A stretch of DNA of 64,000 nucleotides from Calditrichia bacterium (GTDB lineage: Bacteria; Calditrichota; Calditrichia; JAJRVZ01). Under the pieces are notes generated by a model. The model was not told the DNA's origin and made no database searches. It saw only the letters and a program-made list of their open reading frames with translations. Positions 12,685 through 59,593 of the stretch are shown here, piece by piece. The position numbers and the translations under genes are program-made. Where the stretch lies: assembly GCA_963777955.1 (NCBI GenBank), contig CAVZSQ010000013.1, forward strand, positions 546,956 to 610,955. The letters run 5' to 3'. Position 1 is the first letter of the stretch; each line of letters begins with the position of its first letter.

Positions 12685-12759
12685 TGGCGGGGTGGATGGC
12701 GTCCCACAGAACGCTGCTGATCGTCAAATTCGTCCCGAAACAGTAAAGACGGCACCAGT
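12685..12759 (-). repeat. att-like repeat copy R1; minus strand ends ...CCATCCACCCCGCCA like a tRNA 3' end
   Basis: Plus strand TGGCGGGGTGGATGGCGTCCCACAGAACGCTGCTGATCGTCAAATTCGTCCCGAAACAGTAAAGACGGCACC; aligns with R2-R5. Confidence 0.85.
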
Positions 12760-12768
12760 CTTTAATCT

Positions 12769-13896
12769 TTAATTTTTTTCCAATCCTGTCAGTACAACAT
12801 CAATCACCATCATCTCCGAATCCCCTGTAGTCCTGACCGGGGGCCCCCATAGTTGAATACCACTGGTGACAAATACATGGGTTTTATTTATTTTTTTATA
12901 CCCCCAGCTCAATTCGTAAATCTTGTCCGCAATATAGTTAAAAGGAAATAATTGCCCGTTATGTGTATGACCGGATACAAGGATATCAGCACCGCTAGCG
13001 CTGATATTCTGCAAATCCGTAGGTCGATGGTCGAGTATTATTACCGGAAGCTTGTCCGGTAGATTACCCACCAGATCACTAACAGGTTTTCTTTTGTAAA
13101 AATGCTGATCATTTCTGCCCAGCAGTGCAAAAGCATGGTTTATAATAATGGTTGTATCGGTTAAGACCGTAATGTGGGCATTTTTAAAGAAATCTGTTCT
13201 TTCCCCCCCATGATAAAATTCATGATTACCTAATGAAGCATAAACACCATATTTAGTCTGAATTTGACTGAATTGCCGTTCGAATTCTGCCACCTGTTCA
13301 TCCTGGCGGTCCCCTTCCAGGATATCACCAGGTAATAACAGGATATCCGCATTTAATGAATTTACCTTTTTAACAAAATCCGGCATTAAATGATCAGAAG
13401 TCAGTTCACGCAGATGAAAATCGGAGGCGAGCAAAATCCTTAAGTGCTGCAATGCTGATGAACGCCGCGGTATTTCGATCTGGTACCTGTTTACTTTTAT
13501 ATCCGCGTACTTGAACATTCCAAACACAACTACCATTGCAGGGATAATCAACAGGATAAAAAATGTTACAATTTTCATTCTTGGAGTTTGTAATTTTTCG
13601 GGTGCAATAATTTTTAACATTCTATTGACCACAAGTAATAGATCGCGACCTAAAACACTCAGGAACAGATATAACAAGAAAGGTAATAGCAGATAACCTG
13701 AAAGGATTAAAGAGTTTCCTAATCCTGATACCCTGGAGTGAGCAAGTGTCTCAGTCAGTGGAAACAAGAATATTAATAACCAGAAGCCTATGGTGAAGAT
13801 TATTTTGCTATGTTTATGATTAAAAAGGTTAAGAATTCGGATATATACATATATACCGGGTAATAGATAGATAGCGAAAACGATTGTAATAAACAT
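12769..13896 (-). CDS. Membrane-anchored metallophosphoesterase (YkuE-like)
   Basis: SDFH, GDI, GNHE, DHRP, SGHTHNGQ motifs after transmembrane helices. Confidence 0.93.
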   Translation of the reverse strand: MFITIVFAIYLLPGIYVYIRILNLFNHKHSKIIFTIGFWLLIFLFPLTETLAHSRVSGLGNSLILSGYLLLPFLLYLFLSVLGRDLLLVVNRMLKIIAPEKLQTPRMKIVTFFILLIIPAMVVVFGMFKYADIKVNRYQIEIPRRSSALQHLRILLASDFHLRELTSDHLMPDFVKKVNSLNADILLLPGDILEGDRQDEQVAEFERQFSQIQTKYGVYASLGNHEFYHGGERTDFFKNAHITVLTDTTIIINHAFALLGRNDQHFYKRKPVSDLVGNLPDKLPVIILDHRPTDLQNISASGADILVSGHTHNGQLFPFNYIADKIYELSWGYKKINKTHVFVTSGIQLWGPPVRTTGDSEMMVIDVVLTGLEKN

Positions 13897-13995
13897 ATCC
13901 CCCCACGAATTTTTAATCGCAAGTAAAATGATTTTTAAATCTAATGATTAAGATTTTTTTATGCAATCACTGAAGTAAGGTGAGATTTAATTTTA

Positions 13996-14070
13996 GCGGG
14001 GTGGATGGGGGTCCAACAGAGCCCTGATAACCATCACTGGCCTGAAAACAGAAAGACCGGCGACGATGAC
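13996..14070 (-). repeat. att-like repeat copy R2
   Basis: Plus strand GCGGGGTGGATGGGGGTCCAACAGAGCCCTGATAACCATCACTGGCCTGAAAACAGAAAGACCGGCGACGATGA. Confidence 0.85.
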
Positions 14071-14094
14071 TTGCTATCTGACCCTCCCCATTCA

Positions 14095-14136
14095 TCCCCT
14101 CCCTTTTAGCACTTCTTCGTGCTAAAAGGGAGGGGA
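14095..14136. repeat. Perfect 18-bp-arm hairpin (REP-like or terminator) just downstream of the GH43 gene
   Basis: TCCCCTCCCTTTTAGCAC-TTCTTC-GTGCTAAAAGGGAGGGGA, with outer ACCCTCCCC/GGGGTGGGT flanks. Confidence 0.75.
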
Positions 14137-14152
14137 CAGAGGGGTGGGTTAT

Positions 14153-16417
14153 TCATCTCAACAAAATAAGTTTCTTCGTTTCTGCATGACTCCCTGCTTG
14201 TAACCGGTACAGATATACCCCGCTGGCTAAACCCGCTGCATTCCAATCGACTTCATGCCTTCCAGCAATTAGATTTTCATTTAATAACGAAGCCACCTGC
14301 TGTCCCAACTGGTTATAAATCCGCAGGGTAACATAATTGGAATTTGGAATTTGGAATTTGATAGTGGTGCTTGGATTGAACGGATTTGGAAAATTCTGTT
14401 CCATACCAAAGTCCTGCGGCGGAATTGCTGAATCCGCAGGTTTTATCGCAGTGTCGATGGTATCCCCTTCGGCGCTGAAATAAAACTTTAACAGCTGGAA
14501 CAACTTGCCGGCTTCGCTGCCGGTGAATTTCAAATAGACATCGTGCCGTCCGGAAGCGGGTTTTACCTCTGCAGAAAAGGTTTGAAATGTTGTCAAGCCG
14601 CCGGTATTGCCGATGGAACACTCGGCAATTTTATCGCCGGTCTCCAGTGAATCGAGCCACACTTCGACATTGCCGCCGGTGGTGGCGCTGGAGGCGATGA
14701 TCTTCAGCGAATCCGGTATCTTGTCATATTCCTCATTACCTCCAAATTCAACGCCGGCATACATCGCCCAATCATTCACGTGGATGTTATCCAGTACATA
14801 TCCCTGGCGGGTATAGGTCCTGGAGTTGCCGTTCTGGTTGGCATAACCTTCACCGGCAATCGGCGAATAAGCATCGCGGTAGATATAAAGGTCGAAATCA
14901 GCCGGACTGCCCTTGACGTATAACCCCTGCCTGTTACCGGTAAAGGCATTATATTCCGACTGCTGAACATCCATGGTGGAAACATTTATGGATTTTCCGA
15001 CTCGGGTCCAGTAACGGCCGTCGGCGCTGAAATAACCGGTCAGAACATGGTTGGATCGCAATAGTTTTAACCAGACAATATTACCGCTGGTGTTTTCGGC
15101 CTCGTAATACGTTTTATCAAAACTGAAACAAATGACTTTTGTACCACCGGTGTTCAGTGAACTATAAAGTTTGGCATAGAGAGTTTGTAAACCGGTCATG
15201 ATACGCAGCCCGGCTTCATCGCTGGTTGCTTTAGGATCAAAATCGAGTCTGGTAATAAGAGCATAGTTATGTTCGGCATCACTTTTGATGATGGTGTTAT
15301 GCTGGTTTTTGGGCGATAATCTTATCCAGCCGGGACGGTCGGTCAGCGAGTATGGACTGAGCGGAGAATAGCCTAACAACCTCCATTCGGGATTTAATTT
15401 ATCCGAACTGAAAAAGTCCGATTTGGGCACCATCCAGGGGATGCCGCTGCTGGGCAATTGGGGCGCCTGCCTCGGTTCATTGATCGGAAAATCGGCAACC
15501 GGTTTACCGGTGGTGTCATAGCGCACCTGGCTCACCAGGCCCTGGCGACCCAGACCTTGCCATTCACTGATTCCATATGATTGATAAATCACCCACCAGG
15601 TACTGTCGTCGGCCATGACAGCAGGTGAACAGTGATTGGGCAAACTGTACAGGGAGGTAGCTTTTTTGGGATCCTCTTCATTGAAGAAATTACCGAGGTA
15701 TTCCCAGGCGAAGTCTGTCTGCGTAAGTGTTGCGCTTCTCATTACCCGCTGTGTGGCATAGATGTGAATGGCGAAACTATAATAATAATAACCTTTGTGT
15801 TTCCACATCACCGGACCTTCGGCCCAGCTGTAGGGATAGTCAGGCGCCGGATTGATCCAGCATAAATTATAAATTGCGCCGGCGGGCTGCCCGTTACTGC
15901 CCAATTGCAGGATCCAGTTATTGGATTGGCCGTTTTTGACCAGCAGATACCAACTTCCGTCGTCATCGATAAAAATGGAGTTATCCATGCCGAGTCCCGG
16001 CACACTTTGCGGACAGGTCATCGCCACCGGCGAACTCCAGGGACCTGCAGGACTGTCTGCCGTTACGAAATACATGGTTCCGGCATGGCCGAAGAAATGC
16101 CAGTATTTGTTATCATAAAAAACCAGATGGCCTCCCCAGCACCCCGAGGTCGGGGTGGTTCCAAACAGTGACCAGCTATTACTCACCGGCTGGGAAACCG
16201 CTTCCCAGTGAATAAGATCGGTCGAATGGTAAATAATCGGCGTAGTGGCGAATGATGAACCGGTGGTGTAATAGTCATTTCCGAATTTGGATAAGGTACA
16301 ATCCGGATGATCGCCCGGAATGACCGGATTCATATAAGTCGTAAACGACGGCGATTGTCCGTACCCATAACTCCATATGAATAGACAAAAACAAAATAGT
16401 ATATATAATCTTTTCAT
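14153..16417 (-). CDS. Secreted GH43 glycoside hydrolase with beta-sandwich, CBM6-like module and C-terminal sorting domain
   Basis: NPVIPGDHPD, MDNSIFID, WAEGP; CBM6-like ASSATTGGNVEVWLD...GRHDVYLKF; QNFPNPFNPST. Confidence 0.9.
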   Translation of the reverse strand: MKRLYILFCFCLFIWSYGYGQSPSFTTYMNPVIPGDHPDCTLSKFGNDYYTTGSSFATTPIIYHSTDLIHWEAVSQPVSNSWSLFGTTPTSGCWGGHLVFYDNKYWHFFGHAGTMYFVTADSPAGPWSSPVAMTCPQSVPGLGMDNSIFIDDDGSWYLLVKNGQSNNWILQLGSNGQPAGAIYNLCWINPAPDYPYSWAEGPVMWKHKGYYYYSFAIHIYATQRVMRSATLTQTDFAWEYLGNFFNEEDPKKATSLYSLPNHCSPAVMADDSTWWVIYQSYGISEWQGLGRQGLVSQVRYDTTGKPVADFPINEPRQAPQLPSSGIPWMVPKSDFFSSDKLNPEWRLLGYSPLSPYSLTDRPGWIRLSPKNQHNTIIKSDAEHNYALITRLDFDPKATSDEAGLRIMTGLQTLYAKLYSSLNTGGTKVICFSFDKTYYEAENTSGNIVWLKLLRSNHVLTGYFSADGRYWTRVGKSINVSTMDVQQSEYNAFTGNRQGLYVKGSPADFDLYIYRDAYSPIAGEGYANQNGNSRTYTRQGYVLDNIHVNDWAMYAGVEFGGNEEYDKIPDSLKIIASSATTGGNVEVWLDSLETGDKIAECSIGNTGGLTTFQTFSAEVKPASGRHDVYLKFTGSEAGKLFQLLKFYFSAEGDTIDTAIKPADSAIPPQDFGMEQNFPNPFNPSTTIKFQIPNSNYVTLRIYNQLGQQVASLLNENLIAGRHEVDWNAAGLASGVYLYRLQAGSHAETKKLILLR

Positions 16418-16469
16418 AAATTTTCCTCCTGGAGGATTTTCTACTCAACTATGTGTTCAAAATATAATA

Positions 16470-18331
16470 CTATTTTATTAAAATAAATTTTTTTGTATCT
16501 GCAAAATTACTTGTGCGCAGCCGATAGAAATAAATGCCGCTACTCAAACCTGATCCATTCCATTCCACCTGATGCATACCTTCATTTAAATATTCGTCAA
16601 GTACGACGGCCTCTTTTTGTCCGCGCAGATTATATATTTCCAGGGTGACAAAATTGGAATTTGGAATTTGGAATTTTATCATGGTGCTTGGATTGAATGG
16701 ATTCGGATAATTTTGTCCCAGGAAAAAGTCGCGGGGCATTTGGTTTAAAGAATGGTCATCATCAGGACCCATTCCGGTGGGCGTACCGGCGAATATTCTG
16801 AACCAGTCGAAATCGACATATCCTCCGGTGGCTATGGTTGCATAATTAAACAGACAAAATTTATTCCCGGTAAAAATTGAAAGATTGAATTGCATTGAAA
16901 GGTCATTGCCAATCTTGATGAACGATTTATTATCAAGACTATAGGCGAACGAAACCCTGCTTGTGCCATAATTAGCCTGTGCCCGTAAATATAGTGTTAA
17001 AGAATCAACCAAAGCAGAATCAATTGCGGTGCCGTTGTTAATCATTACGACATACCTGACATCCCCCATTTTTTTGATACCGATATATGCATATGGATTC
17101 TGAAACACCGCCAGCCCCGCCACATCGCCATTTTGCATATTAGCGGTATTAATTTGAATTGTAGCAGTTGTCGGCAAAGTTCTAGTGTAGTAAGCAAAAA
17201 TTCTTTGGGTAAGGGTATTGCGGGCATCACGCAAATTAGATACGATTTTGGCGGTTTTCAGCCTCAAGTGTCCCGGATTCTCCGTCAGCGACCATTTGGT
17301 TGAATCCGGATTATGGTTCCAACCCCATTGCAGGCCTAACCTGGTACTATCAAATTCATCAGAAGTGGGTAATACAGTAATCGGATACTCGTTTACCCAC
17401 GTTTGGCTTGGTATGCGTGATAACACCTTTTCCGTCGACGCCAACCATCGGCCAATCATCCTGCCAGGTAACCGGCTGTAAGGAGGGAAACCGTCCAAAC
17501 GCTCCGCCATCCTGAAAAATGATCGACCACCATTCACCCGTTTGAGTTTCTATCAGCGCTCCCTGGTGCAAGCCCGTGCCCAGATATCGAATCGTCCCTG
17601 ATAACGATCATTTCATCATAGGGGCCGTATATATTATCTGAACGCAGGGCCACCTGAAATCCGTCCCGGCCTCCGTAAGTGCAATATAAATAGTAGTAAC
17701 CATTAATTTTATATACATGGCTGCCTTCAAGACCGGCCCGGATATCCCCGGTGAAAACTAAAACATCGCTGCCTTTAGCAGTAAAATTTGTATCTAATTC
17801 AGTAATAGAGATGTTGCCGTATCCGTGGGCGACATAGATCCTGCCGTCATCGTCAAAAAACAAGCCAGGATCATAAAATCCCCTGGGCAATTTTCTTATT
17901 TTCCAGGGTCCTTCGGGTTTTGTTGCCGTGCATATAAATCCACCTTCGTCGAGTGTAATGAATAATAAATAATACTTGCCATTTTTGTATTTTAAACTGG
18001 TGGCCCACTGCCCGTGAGAGTACCTGTTACAACCGTCAAGATTGTAGCAGGGACTAAAATCCATCCGCTGTACGGCGTTACAGCAATATTCCCAGTTTAC
18101 CAGGTCGTACGATTTTAGTATGGTAACTCCCGGGAAAATGAACATGGTTGTTGAAACCATGTAATAGGTAGAATCCACCCGGATTACATCAGGATCGGGA
18201 AAATCAGAATAAATTACCGGATTGGTATACGTTCCGTCCCCATTATCGCTTTGAGTTTTCTGCGCAGAAAGAGGGCACGAAAAGTAAAATATAAAATTAA
18301 TACAAAAAAAAACAAAGATATATCTTTTCAC
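16470..18331 (-). CDS. Secreted GH43 beta-xylosidase-like enzyme with C-terminal sorting domain; two frameshifts (~17575, ~17390)
   Basis: NPVIYSDFPDPDVIRV, YDPGLFFDD, EGSHVYK. Three consecutive ORF pieces form one protein; GTG start at 18331. Confidence 0.88.
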
Positions 18332-18448
18332 ATTGCTGCCCTGCTTTATGTGTATTAGTAACCGTTTTTTCTCGTTAGTGCGGGTGGCGGGTGAATCTAC
18401 AGTGCACCTGACTCTTAACGGGCAGGCATGATTGTCAGTACGCTGCAT

Positions 18449-19481
18449 TTATTTTAATAACATCATCTTCCTGGTCAGGATTCCGTTATCGGTGACCATC
18501 CTGTAAATATATACTCCCGTACTCAGGTTAGTACCGTTAAACTGAACACTGTGCCGGCCTGCTGACATATAATCATTTAGAAGCGTGATTATTTCGCGCC
18601 CATATAAATCGAAAACTTTGAGATTGACTTTGGACTTATTGGATAATTCAAAAACAATATTCGTTGTTGGATTGAATGGATTGGGATAATTTTGCCTTAA
18701 GCGATATTTCCCCGGCAGAGTAGTTGTTTCTTGCTCAACATCAGTACCGCTGCCTTCGTTAAATAGAAAAAGAACTTCGTCTGCAGTCAGAACCCGGTTG
18801 TAGATACTACATTTGGGTATCTCACCAGTCCAGGCGGCATCGCCAGTATACCCGCCCTTGCCCAGATAAGCAGAGTCCACGCTGACGAGGGAAATGTTAT
18901 TATTAGCAGCCAGAGTATTAGTGTCAACCGGCGCACCGTCAATGTACAGGGTTATATTAACCGGATCAATGGTGCATGCCATATGATGAAGTTCCCCGTC
19001 ATCCAGTTCGGGACCGTCCACACCTGTTTCGGCGTTCCAGGGACTGCTTGAATAATCACCGCAGGCAATGGCGGCGCGGCATTTATTATCACCTCTGGCC
19101 GGGCTGAAAAAGATGCAATCAACACCTAAGCCATTATTGGTTTTACCAAAATAAACCAGCATATGATAATTGGGATTACCGCTGGCAAAGGGCATGAACC
19201 AGGCTGAAATGGTAACTTCGTCATATGTATTTATTGAAATTGTCGCGGCAGGCAATTCCAGGTAGGAACCGACGGCTGCCAACAGCAGCGATCCATCGAC
19301 GATCTCGGCACTCCCCTTTAACGTACCATTGGCACCGCCGATGTAATCATTGGCGCTACCGTCATCGAACGTCCAGGAATGAGTCAGGTTTTCGAGTGCC
19401 CGGATCAACCTGAGCGTTTAAATTGGTAATTAGGACCAGAACGGAAACAAAGAACAAAAAATAATGTAATTTTTTATACAT
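18449..19481 (-). CDS. Secreted LamG/ConA-like lectin-fold protein with C-terminal sorting domain; frameshift near 19395
   Basis: ATG at 19481 after AGGAG gives signal peptide MYKKLHYFLFFVSVLVLITNLNAQ; then WTFDDG, ITLYIDG, IYNRVLTADEV; QNYPNPFNPTT. Confidence 0.8.
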
Positions 19482-19602
19482 ATTTCTTCTCCTTAAAATA
19501 ATTTGTTTAATTATAAAATTTATCAAGCAAATATAGATAGTAGCAAGATCAAGTGGTAGCCATTTAATGCTAATAATTCACCAAATAGCGCAGGGAGTAA
19601 TC

Positions 19603-20743
19603 TCAATGCGGTTTATGAAGTTTACGGAATTCGCGCAGGCCGATTCCCTTTTGTTTCTTGAAAAATCTTGAAATATGTTCGACATCCGTGAAATTAAAAA
19701 GGGCTGTTATTTGTGAAATGGGCAGGTTGGTTTCAATCAGCATTTTTGATATCAATTCGACGCGCACCAGCTGAATTTCATTATAGATGGATCTGTGAAC
19801 AGTCCTTTGAAATCTTTTCTCCAGCGTTCGCCTGCTGATTCTCGTCGTACCAACTATATCTTTCACCAGAATTTTATTTCTGGCATTGTTCTTGATGTAT
19901 TTAATTGCCGACGCAACTTCGCTGTCATCTACGGCCAGGATGTCGGAAGACTGTCTCTGAACAATATGGCTCGGCCTGACCATTATCTGTTTTCCCGCAA
20001 TCTTTTTTTTCATGATTAAGCGATCCAATAATTTCGCAGCCTCAAAACCGGCCGACTCGACATTCAAGGCGATGCTGGTCAGGGGCGGATCTTCCAATTC
20101 ACAAATCATCGGATCGTTATCGACACCCAGCACGGCAACTTCTTCCGGAACTTTGAGATTGATTAATTTGCATACCTCCAGCACGTGTTGCCCGCGATCG
20201 TCGTTGCAGGCAAATATGCCGACAGGTTTTGGCAAATCTTTAATCCAGGTGCACATCTGTTGCTGTTCATTCTCCCAATCCTGACGCCGTTTATTCTCGG
20301 CCGACACATAATTGTGGGTTTTCAAACCGGCTTTAAGATTAAATTTTTTAAAATAATTTTTGCGCTCTTCCGACCAATCATATTGATCGAAACCGCAGAA
20401 GGCCAGGTGTTTAAACCCTTTTTCGATAAAATGATCGCTGGCCATTCTGGCAATTACTGTAGAATCTGTTTTAATTATCGGCAAATCTTTGGGGTATGAG
20501 GAATTATGAATAACCAATATGGTGGGAACTTTTAGCCGCAGTAATTCCTTGCTGATCAGGGAATCGCGCATGATAATTCCGTCTGGTTTCCAGCTGGTCA
20601 AATGAGGAATTGATGATTTCAGATCAATAAGCTTCTTTGAAAAAAGTCCATGGCCCGTAAAGTTTCGAGTACCGGGCAATACCGATAATTAATTGCCTGC
20701 CAAAGGCGCGTGAAGTTTCTAAAAGCAAAACAATTTTTTTCAT
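19603..20743 (-). CDS. xylR: XylR-type regulator (periplasmic-binding-like domain plus AraC HTH); frameshift near 20630
   Basis: MKKIVLLLETSRAFGRQLIIGIARY from 20743; PKPVGIFACND, VPEEVAVLGVDND, AraC tail. Confidence 0.85.
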
Positions 20744-21012
20744 ATCTATTTTCTGCGGAGAAAGAATATTTGACAGCTATTAAAACCTGTCCCTATGAAT
20801 TATCACTGCAGCATTAATTCAGCCTTTCGCACATTCTGCCATTGAAAAGTAGATGTCTTCCTTTATGCTCTGATTCAATCCGATCTTTAACCTGCCCCCC
20901 TACGAGGATCCAATTTAATATATTGGAAGTCATCAAGAAAGGGAAGATATGAGTAAACAGAAGTACAATCTTGAAAAGACAAAAAAACTCCTTCAAAGGA
21001 GGTCTTCGACCT

Positions 21013-21033
21013 GCGGGGTGGATGGGGTCCCAC
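21013..21033 (-). repeat. att-like repeat copy R3 (truncated arm)
   Basis: GCGGGGTGGATGGGGTCCCAC, preceded on the plus strand by A7 plus a CTCCTT/AAGGAG hairpin (minus-strand terminator-like). Confidence 0.8.
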
Positions 21034-21156
21034 TGGGAAATTCAATTATTATTTAATTGAATTGTATTCAATACTCCAATTAAATTGTGGCATAACAAAT
21101 ATTAAAGGTTGTTATTCCTGCCTTATAATAAAGTATGAAATGGAGAGGATCAGAAA

Positions 21157-22209: not shown

Positions 22210-22280
22210 GTAAATACTCATTTTTATCGGACTGACCAGCGAATAAAATTCGATAAACTCATTAAAAGGACACCTCTGAC

Positions 22281-48832: not shown

Positions 48833-48848
48833 TAAACTAGCAGGTAAT

Positions 48849-49050: not shown

Positions 49051-49087
49051 GTGACGGGGAGTCCAATCTTAACGTGACTACAGGAGG

Positions 49088-50323: not shown

Positions 50324-50352
50324 AGATTTTTCTGAGATGAAATTATTATGCG

Positions 50353-50892: not shown

Positions 50893-51023
50893 GATAAGCT
50901 CCCTTTCTTAGGCCTGATGGTAGAGCATAACCGAACACCAGAATCTTAGTACCTACTATCGATTCCTACTTATCAAATTGTTATCCTGAGCACTATCAGT
51001 AAATACGCGGTCATAAGAATAGG

Positions 51024-52373
51024 TCAGTGAGGAGTGGGACTCAGCGCATTTTCAGATCTCATCTTCCTCAACCGCAGGTATTCCTTCCTGAATGACCAGT
51101 TCATATAGAGCAGGAATAAGGATAGCAGAATATCCTTGCTGACTGACCGCCTGATTATCTCTCCGAATCCTGATAATCTCCCAAGCAGGTCAATAAAACC
51201 CTCCTCCACTTGTTGCGGGGTCATGTTCCTGGGAAGATAGAAGCAGAGGTTAAATGAAGAGTTGTACGCTATATTATTCTTCAAGAAATCCTGCTCATCC
51301 TTCATCAGCACCCTCCCCTCCTGCTTAAGCCGATCATAGAGTTTCGTACCGGGTGTCGGTACCAGTATGTTTAACATCGGCAGAGCAATCCTGTTATCGA
51401 TGATAAATTTACTCATCCGGGCAGCGGTATCAAGCGTATCGCCGTCAAGACCATAAATGAAAAACGCAGCGACCCGTATACCTGCTGCGTGGATGTTTTC
51501 CAGGTATCGCCTGTACGAATTGACGGTATACTTTTTTTGGACAGCATCAAGATTTGATTGATCGATGGATTCCATACCGATAAATAGTACCCTGCAGCCA
51601 GCTTTCTTTAAGAGCTGAAGGGTTTCCGGATCATCACCGATGTCGATCGTGCATTGGGCACCCCAGATGAAACGGAAACCATGGCTGATCATCGCCTGGC
51701 ACACTCTAATCAGATACTCACGATTGTTGTAAACATTTGTATCCACAATGGCTATTCTTCTCGTCGTTCGGTGTAAATACTCAAGTTCTTCAATTACATG
51801 CTCAAATTTCCGCAGGTAATACTTCCCCTCATAAATGTGACCGATACAGCAGTAATCACACCAGTTACGGCATCCCACACCCAGGAGGACAGGCATAAAA
51901 GAGATCTTCCGTTTATCGAGAACGGAATAGTCAAATCTGTAATTCAGATCCGGCTTGCAGAAGTATTCTTTTTTGAGAGAATGGGATTCAGCGTCTTTTA
52001 GTATGATGGACATCTCCGCTGGACCAGGATTCCCGTGAATTACCGAGTCACAACGTCCATCCAGGTAATGTGTGCTGATATGGGGCTGAAACCCGCCGAA
52101 TATTACTGTCTTCCCCCTCTTCCTGAATTCATCCGCTATTTCGAGGCCACGGAAAATCTCGTATCCCATGGATGATATACCAATCACAGCAGCATCCGTA
52201 TTTAAATTCAGATCATCGAAATATTCATAGCAAAACTCCTTTTCCCAATCAGAGGGAATTGTCGCACTCAATGCAGGGAGGGCCAGAGAAATGATGTACA
52301 ACTTCTTTCCCTTCAGGAGATTGCCGTTATTATCCCTGTAGGAGGGTTGAATCAGGTATATCTTTCGCTTCAT
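51024..52373 (-). CDS. Cobalamin-binding radical SAM protein
   Basis: N-terminal B12-binding-like domain (VIFGGFQPH), CRNWCDYC, GCRVLFIGMES, PTPGT. Confidence 0.9.
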   Translation of the reverse strand: MKRKIYLIQPSYRDNNGNLLKGKKLYIISLALPALSATIPSDWEKEFCYEYFDDLNLNTDAAVIGISSMGYEIFRGLEIADEFRKRGKTVIFGGFQPHISTHYLDGRCDSVIHGNPGPAEMSIILKDAESHSLKKEYFCKPDLNYRFDYSVLDKRKISFMPVLLGVGCRNWCDYCCIGHIYEGKYYLRKFEHVIEELEYLHRTTRRIAIVDTNVYNNREYLIRVCQAMISHGFRFIWGAQCTIDIGDDPETLQLLKKAGCRVLFIGMESIDQSNLDAVQKKYTVNSYRRYLENIHAAGIRVAAFFIYGLDGDTLDTAARMSKFIIDNRIALPMLNILVPTPGTKLYDRLKQEGRVLMKDEQDFLKNNIAYNSSFNLCFYLPRNMTPQQVEEGFIDLLGRLSGFGEIIRRSVSKDILLSLFLLYMNWSFRKEYLRLRKMRSENALSPTPH

Positions 52374-52427
52374 ATTTGCTCTCATCAAACGTGAGATTAA
52401 TCTATTACCCACTGAGCTCTCTGACGA

Positions 52428-53423
52428 TCAGCAGTCTTTCTCGGCGCAAGATTGCAGAATATCTTCGAACCTGCTCCATTTGAATTGGAATGAAGTCGTC
52501 AGAATCTTCTTCGAAGAGTAGGTCATGTCGAATCCAGGCTGCCACATGGTAAAGACAAACCGATCTCCACTTACCCGACGTATCCAGCGCGATAATAAGG
52601 GGAACTTATGCAGCTGTTCTGAGACACGGGCAAGCATCCTGGTCTTTGCATAGGCAGGTCCTAAACGACTCAGGATCCGCAGGTATGCCTGAAATGCGTC
52701 TTCGAACAATATCGACTCGTCGACCGCAATATTAAATATCTGGTTATCCTCAGTGGGAGATAACATTAACTGTGCAGCTGCTTCGGCTACATCTTCCACA
52801 TGCACAAAATTAAACCTTTTACGCTGGAATCCCTCGGCAAGAAGTATTCTTGAGAAAATGGCGGCTCTCAGTTGTTCGCCGAATGGAGTATGCTGCCCGG
52901 GTCCGAATACCCCCACTGGCCGGATCGCGATGGTGGGCATACCCGAGTTGGCGGCGATCTCAAAAGCAGCCAGTTCACCCAGGAGTTTCGAGTAGCCATA
53001 GGGTTCAACCGCCCGCGGCATTATCTCTTCTGAAACTGGTTGATGCGCTCTGGCCAATAGTCCATACACCGCTGTGCTGCTGCAATAGAGCGCCCCTCGT
53101 ACCCCCGCTGCAGCTGCACATGACCAGACATTTCTGGTTCCCTCCACATTGATTCTCTGCAGCTTCTCCCTCGCTGCGTGGGCGTCGACTAGTGCTGCGA
53201 AATGAAAGAGAATGTCAACCCCTTCCAGAACCTTCCTGAATGAGTTCGGGTCAAGTATATCGGCATTCACCAGTTCTACTCCTTCCAGGCCTGCAATACC
53301 GTTGCCACTATTTTGCCGGTGGATACCAGCTTTTATACAAACCCCCCTTCTGGAGAGTGCCCTCACCACCTGGCTTCCAATAAAACCAGCTGCACCTGTT
53401 ACAAATGCTATCCGGGGTTTCAT
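52428..53423 (-). CDS. NAD-dependent epimerase/dehydratase (extended SDR)
   Basis: VTGAAGFIG, SSTAVYG, YGYSK. Confidence 0.92.
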   Translation of the reverse strand: MKPRIAFVTGAAGFIGSQVVRALSRRGVCIKAGIHRQNSGNGIAGLEGVELVNADILDPNSFRKVLEGVDILFHFAALVDAHAAREKLQRINVEGTRNVWSCAAAAGVRGALYCSSTAVYGLLARAHQPVSEEIMPRAVEPYGYSKLLGELAAFEIAANSGMPTIAIRPVGVFGPGQHTPFGEQLRAAIFSRILLAEGFQRKRFNFVHVEDVAEAAAQLMLSPTEDNQIFNIAVDESILFEDAFQAYLRILSRLGPAYAKTRMLARVSEQLHKFPLLSRWIRRVSGDRFVFTMWQPGFDMTYSSKKILTTSFQFKWSRFEDILQSCAEKDC

Positions 53424-55270
53424 TCTGCCGCCCGCTTTTTAACAAAAAAATCACCCATGGCCAGGAAATTAATTTCTGTGGACAGGAAACATTGCAGAGC
53501 ATCGTCCGGGGTACAGACAATGGGTTCGTTTTTCACATTGAAAGAAGTGTTCAGAACCACCGGAACTCCGGTTGACTTCCCAAATTCCGACAGCAGTTCC
53601 CAGAAACGCGGATTAGACTCTTTCGATACCGTTTGCACTCTCGCTGATCCGTCGACATGCGTCACAGCCGGAATGACTGCCCGTTGCTCATCCCTGACCG
53701 GAACAGCAAAGAGCATGAACGGAGATTTGTGCATTCCCGTAAGGTCAAAAAAAATCCTGCTGCACTCCTCCAGCACTGCCGGAGCGAAGGGCCGGAATGA
53801 TTCCCTGTTTTTCACCCTGGCATTGATCTTTTCCTTCATATCCGGGTCACGCGGATCTGCCAGTATGCTCCTGTTCCCGAGTGCCCTTGGACCGAATTCC
53901 ATTCGACCCTGAAACCAGCCGATCACATTTCCTGCAGCTAATTCTTTGGCTACTTTCACAGCGATACGATCTTCCCGTTCCCAGCACACATGATCCTGAA
54001 ATCGTATTAGGGCTGACAGGATCTCCTGCTCATTATATTCAGGTCCGAAGTAAACATGATCCCAGCTGGAACCATTCCTTGGTTCTTTTCCCTCAACCTG
54101 AGAATAGACATAGAGGGCTGCGCCTACACTGCAACCCTCGTCGTTTGCTGCAGGTTGGACGAATATATTGTCAAAGAGTCCGGATCGTGCAATGGCACCA
54201 TTGAGCGTGCAGTTCAAGGCAACCCCTCCTGCCATGCAGAGGTTTGAAAGGCCCGTTTGATTACGGGCATGTCTCAGTAAATGCAACACTGCTCTGTGGA
54301 GTGATTCCTGTAGCGCAGCTGCCACGTCGGCATGTCGTTGTTCCACAGGTGTCCCAGCTGACCTCGCGGGACCTAGCCTTTTACAAAGAAAATCTTTGAG
54401 TTGAGATGTGGCCAGCAAGGGGGTGGAATACTTTCCATCGCTTTCCAGAACGACAAGCGATTCGAAAACATCCCGGAACCGAGCTGGATTTCCATAGGAA
54501 GCCAGCCCCATAACCTTGTACTCGTCTCCCAGGCTTTTAAATCCCAGATAAACAGTGATTATCAGGTAAAGTGCTCCGAGAGAGACAGGAAGCAGTGTAC
54601 GTTCAATTTCCGTGATTGAATCCCCCTGCCCTATTGCCAGTAATGAGCTTTCCAACTCACCTGTCCCGTCAATGGTCAGTATCAAGGCTTCTTCCAGACC
54701 TGATGGGAAAAAGGCACTCGCAGCATGGGCCTCATGGTGTCGCACAGGGACAAATCTGTTCGGTTTCTTCCCTACCAGGCGTTCGAACTGATGGTAAACC
54801 ACTCCGGGTTCCATCATCATTGAAAAAACCCTGCTGTATGAGTCATCGACACTTGCCGCATCCTCAGGCGAAAGATATGGGCGCAGTAGTGCCAGACGCT
54901 TCTCAACGATCGGCAACCGGAAATCACAATAGTGTGCTACAATATCGACTTCGTCGATAGAGACGTTGGCTTTCTCGAGACAATAATGGATGGCGTTCCC
55001 GGGGAGAAGAGTATTACCGGCTAGATTGAGTGAGTACTTTACCCGTATGAATCTTTCCTCGGCAGCACAGGCGATGACTTTCCCATCCCGGACGATCGCC
55101 GCCGAGGCGTCATGCCCGAAATAACCGAGAGGAAACATAGATAAAGGGACTTCCCCCTCCCGGAAACTGAAAATGTTTTCGAATCCCTGGTGTGTCTTTG
55201 CCAGTGGACTCCTCATTCCGGGACAGAGACGTGAGTCTCGTGAAAATCCGCTGTAGCCCAGCGTATACAT
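53420..55270 (-). CDS. CmcH/NodU-family carbamoyltransferase
   Basis: GHDASAA, EERF, HHEAHAASAF, DGTGE, EYKVMGLA, GRMEFGPRALGNRS, FRPFAP, NTSFN. Confidence 0.95.
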   Translation of the reverse strand: MYTLGYSGFSRDSRLCPGMRSPLAKTHQGFENIFSFREGEVPLSMFPLGYFGHDASAAIVRDGKVIACAAEERFIRVKYSLNLAGNTLLPGNAIHYCLEKANVSIDEVDIVAHYCDFRLPIVEKRLALLRPYLSPEDAASVDDSYSRVFSMMMEPGVVYHQFERLVGKKPNRFVPVRHHEAHAASAFFPSGLEEALILTIDGTGELESSLLAIGQGDSITEIERTLLPVSLGALYLIITVYLGFKSLGDEYKVMGLASYGNPARFRDVFESLVVLESDGKYSTPLLATSQLKDFLCKRLGPARSAGTPVEQRHADVAAALQESLHRAVLHLLRHARNQTGLSNLCMAGGVALNCTLNGAIARSGLFDNIFVQPAANDEGCSVGAALYVYSQVEGKEPRNGSSWDHVYFGPEYNEQEILSALIRFQDHVCWEREDRIAVKVAKELAAGNVIGWFQGRMEFGPRALGNRSILADPRDPDMKEKINARVKNRESFRPFAPAVLEECSRIFFDLTGMHKSPFMLFAVPVRDEQRAVIPAVTHVDGSARVQTVSKESNPRFWELLSEFGKSTGVPVVLNTSFNVKNEPIVCTPDDALQCFLSTEINFLAMGDFFVKKRAAE

Positions 55271-55276
55271 TGAGCA

Positions 55277-56251
55277 CTACCCTTCTTGCTTAATCCTGCG
55301 CATCACAACGAAGTACCGTTCCGGTTTCAAAAGTAAATCCAGAGCAATAAGCTGCTCTGTGCGTGTCAGTTTATTGTATCTCCTGTAGAGTTCAGCCGAT
55401 TCGAAGTAGGTGGAGACATCCTCTTTGATACCGAGTAGTTGATTAAGTTCAAGACCTGCCGCACCGCCCAGTGCAATCAGATCCTTGATATTCAGCAGAG
55501 ATTCATGCGGGTTCAGAAACTGATCTGCAATCCAGATGGGATCTTCAAGAGTCTTCCGGGACACTGGATCCTCCCGGGCGTTTCCCAGCAGATCATCCAG
55601 CGGAGATCCATGATCCGTGGTGAAGGCATATGTTCTGGCAAGACTCACTGGATCAGTTGGCCGTGGTGGTACGTCCAGGAGCATGCGCAGCAGTTCAACA
55701 TTCAATGAGTGCCTGTATCTTCCATGCTGTCCGTACACCCAGAGATACAAATCCCCGTCGGCTCTCAGAGCTGCGGAGAGATTGGCCAGCACACGCGCCA
55801 TATCGGCCGTATGGTGTAACACACCCAGACAGAGAATAATGTCAAATGGCGTTTTATATGGAATCGGATACATCACATTCCATTTGCGGAACCCGAGATT
55901 TTGTATACCTGCGCGACAGGCAACCTGCCTTCCCTCTGCCAGAGACGGTCCCGAGTTGTCTATTCCCTTAAAGTCGACATCCCTGAACCGATGGGCCAGG
56001 GCGATCGAGGTATTTCCCGTACCACACCCGGCATCCAGAACTCGCAGGCGCCTTATACCGTTTTCCTTCAGGTGTGCCTCTATGCTTCGGGTAAATTTGC
56101 GCATGAAAATCAGACCATCCTGATCAATAGGCCTACGGCCAGGGAAATGAAACTGTTCATAGAACTTGCCTATCTGCCGGGTCACATTCCGCTCATGGGC
56201 GGTCATCGACGGATTCTGCTGCCTGGCTTTTCCAGTTTTCCTGTCAGACAT
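55277..56251 (-). CDS. Class I SAM-dependent methyltransferase
   Basis: VLDAGCGTG, FDIILCLGVLHH. Confidence 0.9.
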   Translation of the reverse strand: MSDRKTGKARQQNPSMTAHERNVTRQIGKFYEQFHFPGRRPIDQDGLIFMRKFTRSIEAHLKENGIRRLRVLDAGCGTGNTSIALAHRFRDVDFKGIDNSGPSLAEGRQVACRAGIQNLGFRKWNVMYPIPYKTPFDIILCLGVLHHTADMARVLANLSAALRADGDLYLWVYGQHGRYRHSLNVELLRMLLDVPPRPTDPVSLARTYAFTTDHGSPLDDLLGNAREDPVSRKTLEDPIWIADQFLNPHESLLNIKDLIALGGAAGLELNQLLGIKEDVSTYFESAELYRRYNKLTRTEQLIALDLLLKPERYFVVMRRIKQEG

Positions 56252-57764
56252 AAAATTCACTCTTCTTTGAGAAATGGTCTGCAATGACGAAATACCTTTT
56301 CAGAATCCGCTTCACCGTCTCATCTTCGAGATCATCGAGACGTGCCCTCGAACTGACGACATAGGCCATGAAGAACCCATCGATTTCCCGTTGTGTGAAA
56401 TAGCCTGGCAGTATTTTCAATGCGTTCTCGATTCTCCATCGCGAAAACGCGAATTCCCGGATCGCCTTCTTCTTCAGATCCACGAGTCTTTCCAGACTAA
56501 ACGCATAGGGACCTGCTCCGACATTCACGTAATCCCGTTGAATATTGTATCCAGCATCAGTGAAACACCCCTCGGCCTGAGCAAGCCTGTACAGCTCGGT
56601 TCCGGGAAAGTAGACCACCGTGAAGAACGTGGCACCGCAGAGTGAGGATGCCTTAGCGTACTCAATCGTCAGGATGACTTCTTCCTCGGTCTCGCTGGGG
56701 AATCCTATCATGAAGAAACCCCGGGTAACTATTCCCGCTTTCGCCGTATACTCAATCGCTTTGAAAACCTTGTCAAGATCCAGGTTTTTCCTGATCATCT
56801 TCTGCAGTCGGGATGAAGCAGTCTCTACAGCATAGGAAATGAACTTTGTACCGGCGGCAGCCATCTTGTCAATTAAATCTTCGTCGATACGGTCCCCGCG
56901 GATAGCGTTGGGGAAAGATAATGTTAATTTCATACCGCTTTTAATAATCAGATCACAGATTCTCTTGGCCCGCCCGATATCCAGGTTAAATACATCATCA
57001 ATAATTTGGAAGTCTGTGACACCATACGTGTCGTGAAGATAACCGATCTCTGCAAGAACGTTTTCCGGTGATCGGGTTCTGAACCTCTTTCCCAGAATGT
57101 CATGACAGTATGCACACCGATAGGGGCATCCTCTCGTGGTCATGATATTGGCGTGAGGTTTCGAAATCTTCGAAGTGAAGGTGAGAAATTGATTCGAAAA
57201 TCTCTCAAGATCGATCAGCGAATAGTCGGGGAAAGGAAGAGAGTCGAGGTCCACGATAAGGGGTCTGGATGCTGCTTTCATGATATTATCCCCGTCCCGG
57301 CAGGCGACACCCGGGATATCAGTAATCGGTGTCTGATCCATCAGATGCGCCACTATTTCGGTCATTGTCATTTCCCCTTCGCCAATTACGACACAATCGA
57401 CAGACGTGCTACGTAATGCGTCAACCGGATCGTCCGAAGGGTAGGGTCCACCGGCGACAACGAAGCACTCTGCGTTCCACCGTTTCACTGTATCGGCAAC
57501 AATCGCCAGTGAATCTTTGCCTATTGAGAGACACCGGATGCCAACGAGATCTGGATGAAATTCGTTAAGTTGTTCAAGTAAAGATTCCCGCTCGATTTCA
57601 GGTTGATTGGGTTTTGAGATGAGTGTCCAGATCTTAATCTGCACACTTTTTTCGAATTTGCTTTTTAGTACAGTGGCCAGGTACATGAGACCGAGCGAAT
57701 GCTCAGCGGACGGCCAGGCTTCTTCAAGAGAGGTGCGCAGGATATCGATCAGTAAAACTTTCAT
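56244..57764 (-). CDS. Cobalamin-binding radical SAM protein (class B methyltransferase-like)
   Basis: SLGLMYLA, VAGGPYPS, IGEGE, TTRGCPYRCAYC, GFFMIGFPSET. Confidence 0.92.
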   Translation of the reverse strand: MKVLLIDILRTSLEEAWPSAEHSLGLMYLATVLKSKFEKSVQIKIWTLISKPNQPEIERESLLEQLNEFHPDLVGIRCLSIGKDSLAIVADTVKRWNAECFVVAGGPYPSDDPVDALRSTSVDCVVIGEGEMTMTEIVAHLMDQTPITDIPGVACRDGDNIMKAASRPLIVDLDSLPFPDYSLIDLERFSNQFLTFTSKISKPHANIMTTRGCPYRCAYCHDILGKRFRTRSPENVLAEIGYLHDTYGVTDFQIIDDVFNLDIGRAKRICDLIIKSGMKLTLSFPNAIRGDRIDEDLIDKMAAAGTKFISYAVETASSRLQKMIRKNLDLDKVFKAIEYTAKAGIVTRGFFMIGFPSETEEEVILTIEYAKASSLCGATFFTVVYFPGTELYRLAQAEGCFTDAGYNIQRDYVNVGAGPYAFSLERLVDLKKKAIREFAFSRWRIENALKILPGYFTQREIDGFFMAYVVSSRARLDDLEDETVKRILKRYFVIADHFSKKSEFYV

Positions 57765-58789
57765 AAAACTCTCACCCATGGGGGGATTTCCGACACTTCA
57801 TCCTGGGCCACCCGAAATACAAGTGCCCCATCGTCATCAGCTGTTCCCCATATCTGTAATCCCACAATCTGATAGAGGGCCCGCATCATTTTATTCCTAC
57901 CTGTGTCACGATAAATTGCCTCGACATGTGTGAATCCCCGGGCGATTGTTTCACGGAGGAGAAACACGAGAAAAGCTCGTTCTATGCCGCGGCCGAGGAC
58001 TCTGCATGAAACCGCCAGGTATTTCAGCCTCCAGGTCATGGCACTTTTCTCCATTATTGCAGTGCCAACGATACCGTAGGACCCGAACCTGTCATCCAGT
58101 TCCGCGACAGTGATTGTCACCGAATCCGATCTTTGCTGAAGAAGGGCCGACAACTCATTCCCGTTGAGCAGCCATCCCGTTGTATTAAGTTGGTGGGTGC
58201 GGGTCATCAGCTCAACCACTCTGGGAATATTTTCTTCCTGCATGGGGTGGATTTTCAACTTCATGGCGCAGGACATAAGAAAATCTTCGCGTGTCGAAAA
58301 AGCATTTTCGGCTTCCCGCCGCTGGAATTCCGCCTTATAGAATTGACGCCTCGCAGCCGCTTCGGGCGTGACGTGATCCGGTGTAAAATCGGACATCAGG
58401 GGAAGGAGCGGTATATTCTGTGCATTGATAGTCAAAACATCCGGGAGCATAAATGCAACCTGTTCGCACTCGAATGGATCGTCATCAACAAAGACAACTG
58501 AGTCCAGGGAGATCTGGAGTTCTTTGGATATTTGAATGATGTTTTGTGATTTCGGCAGCCAGTTGATCTTGGGAACGAGAAAAAGCCCTTCAATTTTCCG
58601 GTCTTTAAGGACTTTCATTGCCAGATCTTCGTCGCCACGACTCGCGATGGAATGAAGGATCCCGCGGCGATCGAGTTCCTGGATGGTCCGGATGACTTCT
58701 TCACGCACCTGAACAACCCCTTCCAGAGTGACGCCGTCCCAGAGTGTATTATCAAGATCCCAGACGATGCATTTCTTCACTGCTGTCAT
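57761..58789 (-). CDS. fkbH: FkbH-like HAD-IIIC glyceryl transferase/phosphatase
   Basis: KCIVWDLDNTLWDG, VFVDDDPFE, RTHQLNTTG, DRFGSYG, SCRVLGRG. Confidence 0.92.
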   Translation of the reverse strand: MTAVKKCIVWDLDNTLWDGVTLEGVVQVREEVIRTIQELDRRGILHSIASRGDEDLAMKVLKDRKIEGLFLVPKINWLPKSQNIIQISKELQISLDSVVFVDDDPFECEQVAFMLPDVLTINAQNIPLLPLMSDFTPDHVTPEAAARRQFYKAEFQRREAENAFSTREDFLMSCAMKLKIHPMQEENIPRVVELMTRTHQLNTTGWLLNGNELSALLQQRSDSVTITVAELDDRFGSYGIVGTAIMEKSAMTWRLKYLAVSCRVLGRGIERAFLVFLLRETIARGFTHVEAIYRDTGRNKMMRALYQIVGLQIWGTADDDGALVFRVAQDEVSEIPPWVRVL

Positions 58790-59072
58790 AGCTTTTCTCC
58801 ATTGGAACAGGGTTCGTTCGAATCTGTTGTTTTGACCTTATGTATTCCGCGATCGACGCGATAGATACGAAATGCACCGGTATAAGATCTTCGTCCGGAA
58901 TCTCCAGGTTGAATTTCCGCTCAATGAAGCCAACAAAAGAAATAAGCCCCGCAGAATCGAGTATGCCGGACTCAAAAAGGTTTTTGGTATCTGCGAATTC
59001 TATAGCTGAGCCTCGAGGAAGGCACTGCTCGTGAATATAGGCCCAGAGTACAGTTTCGATTTCTCTATTCAT
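58752..59072 (-). CDS. Acyl carrier protein
   Basis: LFESGILDSAGL phosphopantetheine motif; EIPDEDL. Confidence 0.9.
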   Translation of the reverse strand: MNREIETVLWAYIHEQCLPRGSAIEFADTKNLFESGILDSAGLISFVGFIERKFNLEIPDEDLIPVHFVSIASIAEYIRSKQQIRTNPVPMEKSYDSSEEMHRLGS

Positions 59073-59142
59073 GTTTTTTCGTGATATCCTTTCGTTTCCG
59101 GTATTTCTTTCCTCCCAAATGTGAGTATTTTCCCCAACTCGT

Positions 59143-59186
59143 TTGTCATAAAACTGTCATAAAGGTGTATAATTTCAGTCATAAAA
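59143..59186 (+). promoter_or_regulatory. Pho-box-like direct repeats with 11-bp periodicity
   Basis: TTGTCATAAAA/CTGTCATAAAG/GTGTATAATTT/CAGTCATAAAA. Confidence 0.55.
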
Positions 59187-59511
59187 CATCACGAATGGTC
59201 CATTTATGAAGATGCAGAACTTTAGATTTGTACTTCGATAATAGTTCTAAAAATATAGAAGATGAATGGATACCAGCAGTATACTTAATGTTTGAAGGCA
59301 AAATTAGAGTAAAACTATTGCTGCATGTAAAATGCTGGATTAACAGTTATAATTTACCATACAAATAAGTGAAGGCAACAAAAATCTAATGGAATGCTTT
59401 ATGACTAACAACATATACATACTAAGGGAGTGCCTGAACTTTTAATTCACGTTGACAGGTGATGTAAGTTTAAAAGGGAGTTAGTAAGATTAACTACAAC
59501 GTGATCCTGAA

Positions 59512-59545
59512 ATAAAAAACCTACTGTTATTTATAACAGTGGGTT
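59512..59545 (-). terminator. Intrinsic terminator immediately 3' (minus strand) of repeat R5
   Basis: AACCTACTGTTAT-TT-ATAACAGTGGGTT hairpin with an adjacent A-run (T-tract on minus). Confidence 0.65.
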
Positions 59546-59548
59546 AAT

Positions 59549-59593
59549 GCGGGGCGGATGGGGTCCCACAGAACCCTGATGATTGTCACATTC
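59549..59593 (-). repeat. att-like repeat copy R5, abutting the kinase stop codon
   Basis: Plus strand GCGGGGCGGATGGGGTCCCACAGAACCCTGATGATTGTCACATTC. Confidence 0.85.

Follow-up and report, generated by a model that had tools for sequence, protein, structure and literature searches.

Co-oriented repeats at the end of a Calditrichia contig as probable scars of a tRNA-Asp-anchored array of gene blocks

Introduction

How do blocks of genes for polysaccharide degradation, efflux and a small biosynthetic operon come to lie side by side, divided by copies of one short repeat? This question is raised by the stretch analyzed here (the window), the last 64 kb of the 611-kb contig C13 (CAVZSQ010000013.1) in the 4.24-Mb assembly of a Calditrichia bacterium (GCA_963777955.1, hereafter G000); the end of the window is also the end of the contig. 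A first-pass annotation of these 64 kb had noticed five intergenic repeats in a single orientation and had proposed that they are attachment sites derived from the 3' end of a tRNA gene. Our analysis indicates that the repeats are probably the tRNA-distal junctions (attR-type scars) of an array of inserted gene blocks anchored at a tRNA-Asp gene. This reading draws upon the regional confinement of the repeat, the position of related copies downstream of tRNA-Asp genes on another contig and in another genus, and the changes of gene order at several copies. Comparisons were made among 61 genomes including G000, of which G001 is the sister species and the one other species of the genus, while G004 represents another genus (6.9-Mb assembly in 20 contigs). 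Contig numbers such as C3, C4 and C13 belong to G000 unless another genome is named.

Results

The five copies, termed R1 to R5, are found at window positions 12687, 13996, 21013, 48976 and 59549, all on the plus strand and co-oriented, and were recovered by repeat finding and MAFFT alignment in agreement with the first-pass annotation. Their 41-nt consensus had no match in dinucleotide shuffles of the window, compared to the five co-oriented copies of the actual sequence. A strict 41-nt search with up to 3 mismatches recovered R5 alone, because the copies diverge by 20-40% and by one indel. R1, R2, R4 and R5 are boxes of 65-90 nt, while R3 has kept only the last ~21 nt. On the minus strand, where most of the neighboring genes are encoded, each copy in the window sits behind the stop codon of a gene. 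Read in this sense, the box ends in ...GGGAC(C)CCCATCC(A/G)CCCCGC, and a terminator, consisting of a hairpin and a T-run, lies ~10 nt beyond the box end. The hairpins fall into a few types, either CCTCC/GGAGG or GCCCCC/GGGGGC as well as CCCACTGTTAT/ATAACAGTGGG. R1 continues from the box end into CCA, as originally reported, and is the only copy to do so; R4 continues into CC and the remaining copies into T, A and A. An alignment of 22 copies from the two species of the genus revealed that the 3' 45 nt are well conserved and end sharply, while the 5' edge is ragged, with several copies starting at different points.

The individual copies, all given on the minus strand, differ in their completeness. 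R1 (12653..12753) comprises a full box (12687-12753) ending CCACCCCGC and a weak terminator hairpin plus T-run (12653-12686); it is located 16 nt past the stop of a phosphoesterase gene and upstream of an AMP-binding ligase gene. There are no copies further left on the 611-kb contig, making R1 the outermost copy of C13, just as had been predicted. R2 (13996..14061) is a full box located 92 nt past the stop of a GH43-CBM6 gene with a type IX secretion system (T9SS) domain. In the window, it lacks both the terminator and a 130-nt fragment resembling half of tRNA-Asp, the latter of which is present in its G001 ortholog (L039). R3 (20983..21033) is truncated to a box remnant (21013-21033) consisting of the ~21-nt end GCGGGGTGGATGGGGTCCCAC, flanked by a CTCCTT/AAGGAG terminator and T-run (20983-21012), and the full 57-nt consensus is not there; it lies in the divergent spacer between an AraC-type regulator and an RND pump operon. 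R4 (48950..49041) has a full box (48976-49041) and a T-run, 47 nt past the stop of a DUF418 gene and upstream of a ROK regulator gene. R5 (59505..59614) consists of a box (59549-59614) followed by a "type b" hairpin CCCACTGTTAT..ATAACAGT with its T-run (59505-59548), and the end of a kinase/TPR reading frame takes the place of the 5' third of the box in the minus-strand sense. Including its hairpin, R5 is 94% identical to a copy on contig C33 of G001, where the same box and hairpin are followed by different downstream genes. For R3 and R5, these details correct the first-pass annotation.

An nhmmer profile search of the whole G000 assembly located 10 sites, nine with E<=7e-5 and R3 with E=0.11. 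As anticipated by the first-pass annotation, the copies are not scattered over the genome: all 10 sites are confined to C13, C3 and C4, with one orientation per piece. On C13, these are the five window copies (559642-606569, minus strand). C3 carries copies at 243655-243720 and 248692-248752 (plus strand), the second of which runs into the contig end, while C4 carries copies at 5260-5326 and 8043-8075 (plus strand), the latter with an internal insertion, together with a 26-nt stub at the contig end. C3 and C4 each end inside a copy, and the end of C3 read together with the start of C4 yields a seamless box plus type-b hairpin. No exact overlaps of >=15 nt exist between contig ends. Likewise, the 1.5 kb of G001:C440 extending beyond the right end of the window have no match in G000, and thus provide no link from C13 to C3 or C4. 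The insertion in the C4 copy (G000:C4:8043-8120) recurs in G001:C191:3258-3340 (L037), with the same ~50 nt placed between GGGAC and CCCATCC and containing a T-loop-like GTTCGACTC and a CCCGCCG/CGGCGGG hairpin.

When all 61 genomes were searched with a sequence-only covariance model, strong matches (E<=1e-9) were obtained in two of them, G000 and G001 (15 matches in G001), and G004 yielded one weak match with the same model. G004 does encode a related box (ATCAAAAGAGTTCGGTGAGAC...), present in five copies that all lie in a single 12-kb stretch of C9 (115392-127529, minus strand) and nowhere else in its 6.9 Mb. The repeat family is genus-specific and regional rather than dispersed.

The connection to tRNA-Asp is apparent outside of the window. 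ARAGORN placed the tRNA-Asp(GTC) of G000 at C3:240637-240712 (plus strand), 3 kb upstream of the first C3 copy (C3b) and on the same strand. The 42 nt behind this tRNA and the 42 nt behind C3b are identical at 36 positions; therefore, ahead of one and the same terminator, the box end takes the position otherwise held by the end of the tRNA. An identical 76-nt tRNA-Asp ending TCCGGACCGC is common to G000, G002, G005, G006 and G007, and the last 10 nt of the repeat match the G000 tRNA-Asp end at 8 of 10 positions. In G001, tRNA-Asp ends GTCTCGTCCGCCCCGC, its last 10 nt being the repeat core TCCGCCCCGC in place of the TCCGGACCGC of four other genera, and it is preceded by the same upstream gene and promoter as in G000. 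This gene (G001:C10:16746-16821, L087:10747-10822) is the sole tRNA-Asp found in G001. With the repeat core as its 3' end, its acceptor stem contains two neighboring mismatches, T3-C70 and C4-C69. Either this tRNA is impaired, with a further copy missing from the assembly, or the assembly is chimeric. In G004, all five boxes lie 7-19 kb downstream of tRNA-Asp (C9:134538-134614, minus strand) and are co-oriented with it. One of these copies ends CGTCCGGCCCGC, which is identical to the tRNA-Asp end at 11 of 12 positions; tRNA-Asp ranks first of 41 tRNAs for this copy, with a score reached by 16 of 2000 shuffles. C3 and C4 alone contain exact tRNA-Asp 3' fragments. Furthermore, several copies are followed, past the terminator, by fragments resembling the 3' half of tRNA-Asp (CACGCAGGAAGTTG, a variable hairpin and GTCTCGTCCGGACCGC), including the G001 ortholog of R2. 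The assignment to tRNA-Asp made in the first-pass annotation is thus supported through C3, the G001 tRNA end and the G004 array, while the particular 3' end it had predicted, CCACCCCG, is found in none of the 41 tRNAs of the G000 assembly. It had also predicted an intact tRNA to the right of the window, but C13 stops there and the tRNA-Asp of G000 is on C3.

Directly upstream of the true tRNA-Asp of G000 are two tandem tRNA-Asp-like units, A and B (L009:11232-11570, corresponding to G000:C3:240231-240569), each behind its own copy of a promoter-like GTTTTACTTGACTG motif. The units retain the acceptor and D stem of the 5' side, the anticodon stem, CACGCAGGAAGTTG, GTCTCG and TCCG. The D loop and T arm have given way to GC-rich hairpins, and the acceptor strand is preceded by a long hairpin; the G000 units have a further hairpin in the anticodon loop. 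G004:C9 also has two units (L108:17640-17915, minus strand), which are built alike but differ in their hairpin sequences, and in G001 a plain tRNA-Asp is under the control of this promoter. Minimum free energy folding of units A and B produced no clean cloverleaf (z-scores -0.8 to -2.6). The units may represent decayed copies of the gene or a tRNA-derived RNA of an unknown kind.

Several other identities of the box itself were considered and rejected. The box is not a tRNA: ARAGORN calls none in the window, none of the 41 tRNAs ends alike, there is no T-loop, and Smith-Waterman alignment to tRNA-Asp is at shuffle level. Nor is it coding, as the frames that are open in some copies are shifted between copies by a one-base indel (GACCCC vs GACCCCC), and the small open reading frames (ORFs) over boxes have no Pfam match. 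As a conserved RNA fold, the consensus reaches -2.5 kcal/mol with six weak pairs, one of them covarying. Of seven copies folded with their terminators, five were no better than shuffles (z-scores +0.9 to -2.5 overall), and in the two that folded better (z -1.6 and -2.5) the stable part is the terminator hairpin, not the box. Folding of the consensus and of single copies gave no attC-type imperfect inverted repeat. Rfam 15 families had no match in the window at gathering score, and on C3 and C4 at E<=1 they matched only the true tRNA plus two chance-level sites.

Recombinase genes were sought by Pfam, including the tyrosine (PF00589) and serine (PF00239) families. Consistent with the first-pass annotation, the ORFs selected for scanning, which came from the window, C3, C4 and the arrays of the relatives, included no recombinase, and PF00589 had no match on C3, C4 or C13. 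The four PF00589 matches of G000 are on C19, C20 and C21 only, none near the arrays, and one of them adjoins tRNA-Phe; the tyrosine recombinases of G000 include those at C21:9929, C21:18938 and C19:256197. Whole-genome scans of G004 and G002 similarly placed their PF00589 matches on contigs other than those with arrays, and PF00239 gave no match in whole-genome scans of G000 and G001. G000 yielded neither a helper element nor an integrase of matching specificity. That the arrays of three genera all lack a recombinase is one odd feature of these loci; the recurrence of small GIY-YIG genes in the arrays is another. The G000 gene (C3:243859-244101, ~80 aa) has tRNA-Asp 3'-half-like fragments on both sides (C3:243764-244196, L009:14765-15197). 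The G004 array contains three GIY-YIG genes. Two modules, each composed of a GIY-YIG gene, a fragment and a terminator, lie in tandem behind tRNA-Asp (G004:C9 ~133886-134435), and a GIY-YIG gene or remnant stands behind the box and terminator in three of the four copies read. G006 has one GIY-YIG gene 270 nt from tRNA-Asp.

Comparison with the sister species also reveals where gene order has changed. It breaks at R1, at the R4-R5 block and at R5, as the first-pass annotation would have it, but is conserved around R2; at R3, the G001 scaffold has a run of N. The outermost unit (10879..12652, minus strand, G+C 0.53) consists of the AMP-binding ligase gene and its promoter region. The only ortholog of the ligase is in G001 (91%), with identity elsewhere in the family being <=36%. 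A box precedes the ligase unit in both species, while the flanking genes are different: the two sequences match almost perfectly past the core, with no identity on the upstream side of the box, where the gene in front encodes a phosphoesterase (G000) or a DUF7670 protein (G001). Islet 1 (12754..13995, minus strand, 1.2 kb) encodes this metallophosphoesterase, and window positions 12759-13999 are 90% identical to G001 L039:516-1756, the homology beginning at the 5' edge of R1 and ending at R2. In G001, the phosphoesterase unit abuts an ABC transporter gene, with no box between them. Islet 2 (14062..20982, minus strand, 7 kb) encodes T9SS-secreted enzymes with GH43, GH43_C2 and Laminin_G domains together with an AraC/periplasmic-binding regulator, at 83-85% identity to G001.

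The two remaining blocks are larger. Islet 3 (21034..48949, 28 kb, no single strand) contains an RND efflux operon, GH20, DUF5009, transporters, GH94, a GH18 chitinase, a TonB receptor and ROK genes; its ROK end is 90% identical to G001 and its RND part 71% (possibly a paralog). Islet 4 (49042..59504, minus strand, 10.5 kb) encodes DUF418, two radical-SAM enzymes, an epimerase, a carbamoyltransferase, a methyltransferase, HAD and ACP. The two parts of it that were compared (49088-51000 and 57500-59072) have no match in G001, and its G+C is 0.49-0.51, compared to about 0.43 nearby and a range of 0.39 to 0.53 across the blocks. Pfam thus bears out the broad outline of the contents first ascribed to these blocks, except for an HD protein: no HD domain is detected by Pfam in the window, and the ORF at 50353-50892 has no Pfam match. 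Much smaller units occur in the relatives, as box pairs 1.2-1.9 kb apart in G001 and G004 enclose MNT/HepT, HigB, NYN and DUF4143 cassettes of the kind carried by mobile DNA. Examples of such units between two boxes are G001 L036:3878-4991, L037:3737-4374 and L035:5103-5777 and G004 L108:7818-8413; they comprise an NYN-domain gene and pairs of the toxin-antitoxin type, in which a nucleotidyltransferase is joined by HepT or an unknown partner, or a HigB-like gene by a small one. Downstream of tRNA-Asp, G005 and G006 have different genes, and no ancestral flank is definable for an empty-site comparison. Public sequencing runs were also consulted for traces of excision. The best of them hold <=0.20 of the sampled words, and the four compared at 90% likeness yielded short assembled contigs only, which contain no joint at 12687, 13996 or 21013 and no piece bridging them, and are uninformative on excision either way.

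Some further features of the window and its immediate surroundings deserve mention. The coding sequences of four genes are broken up into two or three frames that overlap, namely those for DAHP synthase (7610-8743), GH94 phosphorylase (35320-37723), ROK kinase (46612-47563) and a Ser/Thr kinase with TPR repeats (59592-62191), due to either indel errors in the assembly or pseudogene formation; the DAHP synthase of G001 is a single 376-aa frame. The GAF-SpoIIE phosphatase gene at the contig end (62283-64000) is 99% identical to G001:C440, compared to 83-91% for other shared genes, which suggests a recent exchange between the species or contamination between bins. Lastly, window positions 4261-7518 hold two tandem paralogous genes encoding leucine-rich-repeat and Ig-domain proteins with T9SS sorting domains, which exhibit a 72-nt repeat periodicity as well as 253-nt and 148-nt stretches at 72-81% identity.

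Discussion

The reading that best fits these loci is a decayed tRNA-Asp-anchored array of islets, which conforms to a known kind of genomic-island array, except that a recombinase gene of its own is missing here. Each junction would consist of three parts: a conserved 50-80 nt with a ragged 5' side, which would have been the margin of the DNA that came in; a sharp ~10-nt core, TCC(A/G)CCCCGC, which would stand where the last tRNA-Asp bases stand; and a terminator, whose hairpin belongs to one of a few types and has its like behind the tRNA gene. New DNA would have recombined with the 3' end of the tRNA-Asp gene, and earlier insertions would have been pushed outward, leaving the oldest junction (R1) furthest from the tRNA. 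The end of C13 would then presumably belong to the same array as C3 and C4. As for the enzyme, the insertions could have been catalyzed by a site-specific recombinase that was either supplied in trans or has since been lost, a proposal for which we consider the chances to be evenly balanced. The first-pass annotation had envisioned attP-bearing circles inserted by a recombinase acting in trans; nothing was found that shows either. Most blocks of the window are presumably fixed fossils, or cis-mobilizable at best.

A number of observations weigh against this reading. Since the window ends at the contig end, the linkage of C13 to C3 and C4 is one that we infer. The core differs from the G000 tRNA end at two of 10 positions and, within the tRNA, it creates two acceptor-stem mismatches, as in G001, while a normal integrating element would restore the tRNA. 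The box itself speaks poorly for tRNA-Asp as well: the 48-nt box consensus aligns with the G000 tRNA-Asp at a score of 10, which 1931 of 2000 shuffles equal, and no tRNA-Asp fragment with <=2 mismatches exists in the window or anywhere on C13. Hence, the tie to tRNA-Asp rests on other contigs and on relatives, not on the box sequence. The arrays are also devoid of recombinase genes, as described above. The order GH43-R2-phosphoesterase is syntenic in both species, and therefore R2 is not a current breakpoint. In G001, one box lies behind the ligase gene and another before a beta-lactamase gene, whereas the two genes are 48 nt apart in G000 with no box; a box in one species and none in the other at this junction is unpredicted by simple serial integration. 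Lastly, boxes are very often found behind the stop codon of a gene for a T9SS-secreted protein, with homology running from the C-terminal domain into the box, which also fits a spread by duplication of gene ends.

This last point is central to an account without any site-specific recombination, in which the box and terminator would be the conserved 3' flank of duplicating T9SS-cargo gene ends, blocks would be swapped between strains by RecA-dependent recombination at these repeats of 70-110 nt, and gene conversion with the tRNA-Asp flank would have placed the core into the G001 tRNA. We consider it unlikely. A Por_Secre_tail gene precedes five of the seven full-length boxes of G000 (5 of 10 sites when the partial R3, C4:8043-8075 and the C4-end stub are included) and at least five of the 15 boxes of G001; BLAST homology extends from the C-terminal sorting domain across the spacer into the box; and the last codons of the sorting domain precede three of the four G004 boxes read, even where the gene is gone. 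The absence of a recombinase in cis and the ragged 5' edges would be expected as well. However, it leaves unexplained why tRNA-Asp is found upstream of every copy in G004 and on C3, always in the same orientation as the copy. T9SS genes on C12, C17, C20 and C25 that share this domain have no box, and boxes also occur behind non-T9SS genes and toxin-antitoxin cassettes. Homing could likewise build an array without an integrase, if the small GIY-YIG genes behind a tRNA-like end and terminator encoded nucleases that cut tRNA-Asp loci lacking them, with repair copying the nuclease gene and its neighboring cassettes. The GIY-YIG genes inside the arrays, one in G000 and three in G004, and the one near tRNA-Asp in G006 agree with such a process, and SegB, a GIY-YIG enzyme of phage T4, is active in a region of tRNA genes. 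Nevertheless, we regard homing as very unlikely, as none of the five window copies adjoins a GIY-YIG gene, the ~80-aa proteins are no more than a catalytic domain, these genomes have most of their GIY-YIG genes outside of the arrays, and no cleavage site is known.

The box could alternatively act at the RNA level, as a 3' untranslated region (3'-UTR) element or a small RNA derived from one, with a C-rich single-stranded seed and its own terminator. Its invariable sense position behind a gene and ahead of a terminator, the conservation of the 3' 45 nt and one compensatory change in a 6-bp hairpin of R1 would all suit such a role. This is nonetheless highly improbable in light of the lack of Rfam matches, the weak consensus structure and shuffle-level folding of most copies, and an RNA element would not account for a ragged 5' edge or for the restriction of the copies to one chromosomal region. 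An ordinary dispersed repeat of the repetitive extragenic palindromic (REP) or miniature inverted-repeat transposable element (MITE) kind would be short, intergenic and genus-specific, just as the box is, and could occupy a site in G001 that is empty in G000. With all 10 G000 sites on three contig pieces, all five G004 sites in one 12-kb stretch, a single orientation and no inverted repeat seen, this explanation is largely refuted and hardly credible.

A bolder extension of the tRNA-Asp-anchored array is also conceivable. In a family of Calditrichota, the locus might function as an integrase-free cassette platform at tRNA-Asp, accepting anything from 1.2-kb toxin-antitoxin cassettes to 28-kb operon blocks through exchange at the ~10-nt tRNA-like core and terminator, mediated by an unrecognized trans-acting enzyme or by the GIY-YIG nucleases of the array. 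It would then be a functional analog of an integron built upon a tRNA end, and the hairpin-expanded tRNA-Asp-like genes would be part of the system. We view this as distinctly unlikely. With no recombinase in any array examined, blocks that still move would depend on an unknown enzyme; if they no longer move, the arrays are an ordinary fossil record of old insertions. The arrays reveal where an uncultured and little-studied lineage stores and swaps its accessory genes, including those for polysaccharide degradation, efflux and a small biosynthetic operon, and the box and core offer a sequence tag for finding such blocks in metagenomes.

Among known systems, integrons and their integrase-free derivatives, the CALINs (attC clusters without an integrase), likewise have co-oriented short repeats at the 3' ends of units, and their small cassettes include toxin-antitoxin pairs. 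The co-oriented short repeats and the toxin-antitoxin cassettes of G001 and G004 resemble this arrangement. As here, integron cassettes contain no recombinase themselves; integrons have IntI, attI and attC, the latter an imperfect palindrome. The integron-like platform of the first-pass annotation finds no counterpart here for IntI, given the lack of PF00589 matches on the three array contigs, nor for attI, nor for the attC-type hairpin or palindrome in the box. Furthermore, the units described here reach 28 kb and carry many genes on both strands as well as their own regulators.

Arrays beside tRNA and other small-RNA genes offer closer parallels. As far as the sections of the preprint on these islands describe, the tycheposon islands of Prochlorococcus lie beside tRNA genes and contain full-length and partial tRNAs with scattered degenerate remnants, and successive integrations push older elements outward (bioRxiv 10.1101/2020.12.28.424599). 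Tycheposons have their own tyrosine recombinase and replication genes, none of which were seen here. The ICESt1-related elements of Streptococcus thermophilus include blocks that are flanked by att sites and devoid of recombination genes; these are stacked in tandem at a single site and can be mobilized only by the integrase of a related element (Pavlovic et al. 2004, as cited in PMC3146451). The likeness lies in the tandem blocks lacking a recombinase; in G000, with no helper of matching specificity found, mobility is putative. Within the portions of McMurdie et al. 2011 that concern them (PMC3146451), the ssrA islands of Dehalococcoides are described as multiple tandem islands within 100 kb downstream of one small-RNA gene, bounded by direct 20-bp repeats of the ssrA 3' end with ~85 bp of extra conservation around them. 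Insertion there is inferred to occur in the T-loop, and gene order varies between strains; 16 islands have a serine-recombinase module beside attL, and 15 lack an integration module and are discussed as cis-mobilizable. The Dehalococcoides repeat is an exact 20-bp copy of ssrA, while here the anchor is tRNA-Asp and the core is off the host tRNA at two of 10 positions, no recombinase is present in any array examined, and some units measure just 1.2-1.9 kb. Even so, the ssrA islands are the closest described case; blocks without an integration module and a variable gene order are common to both.

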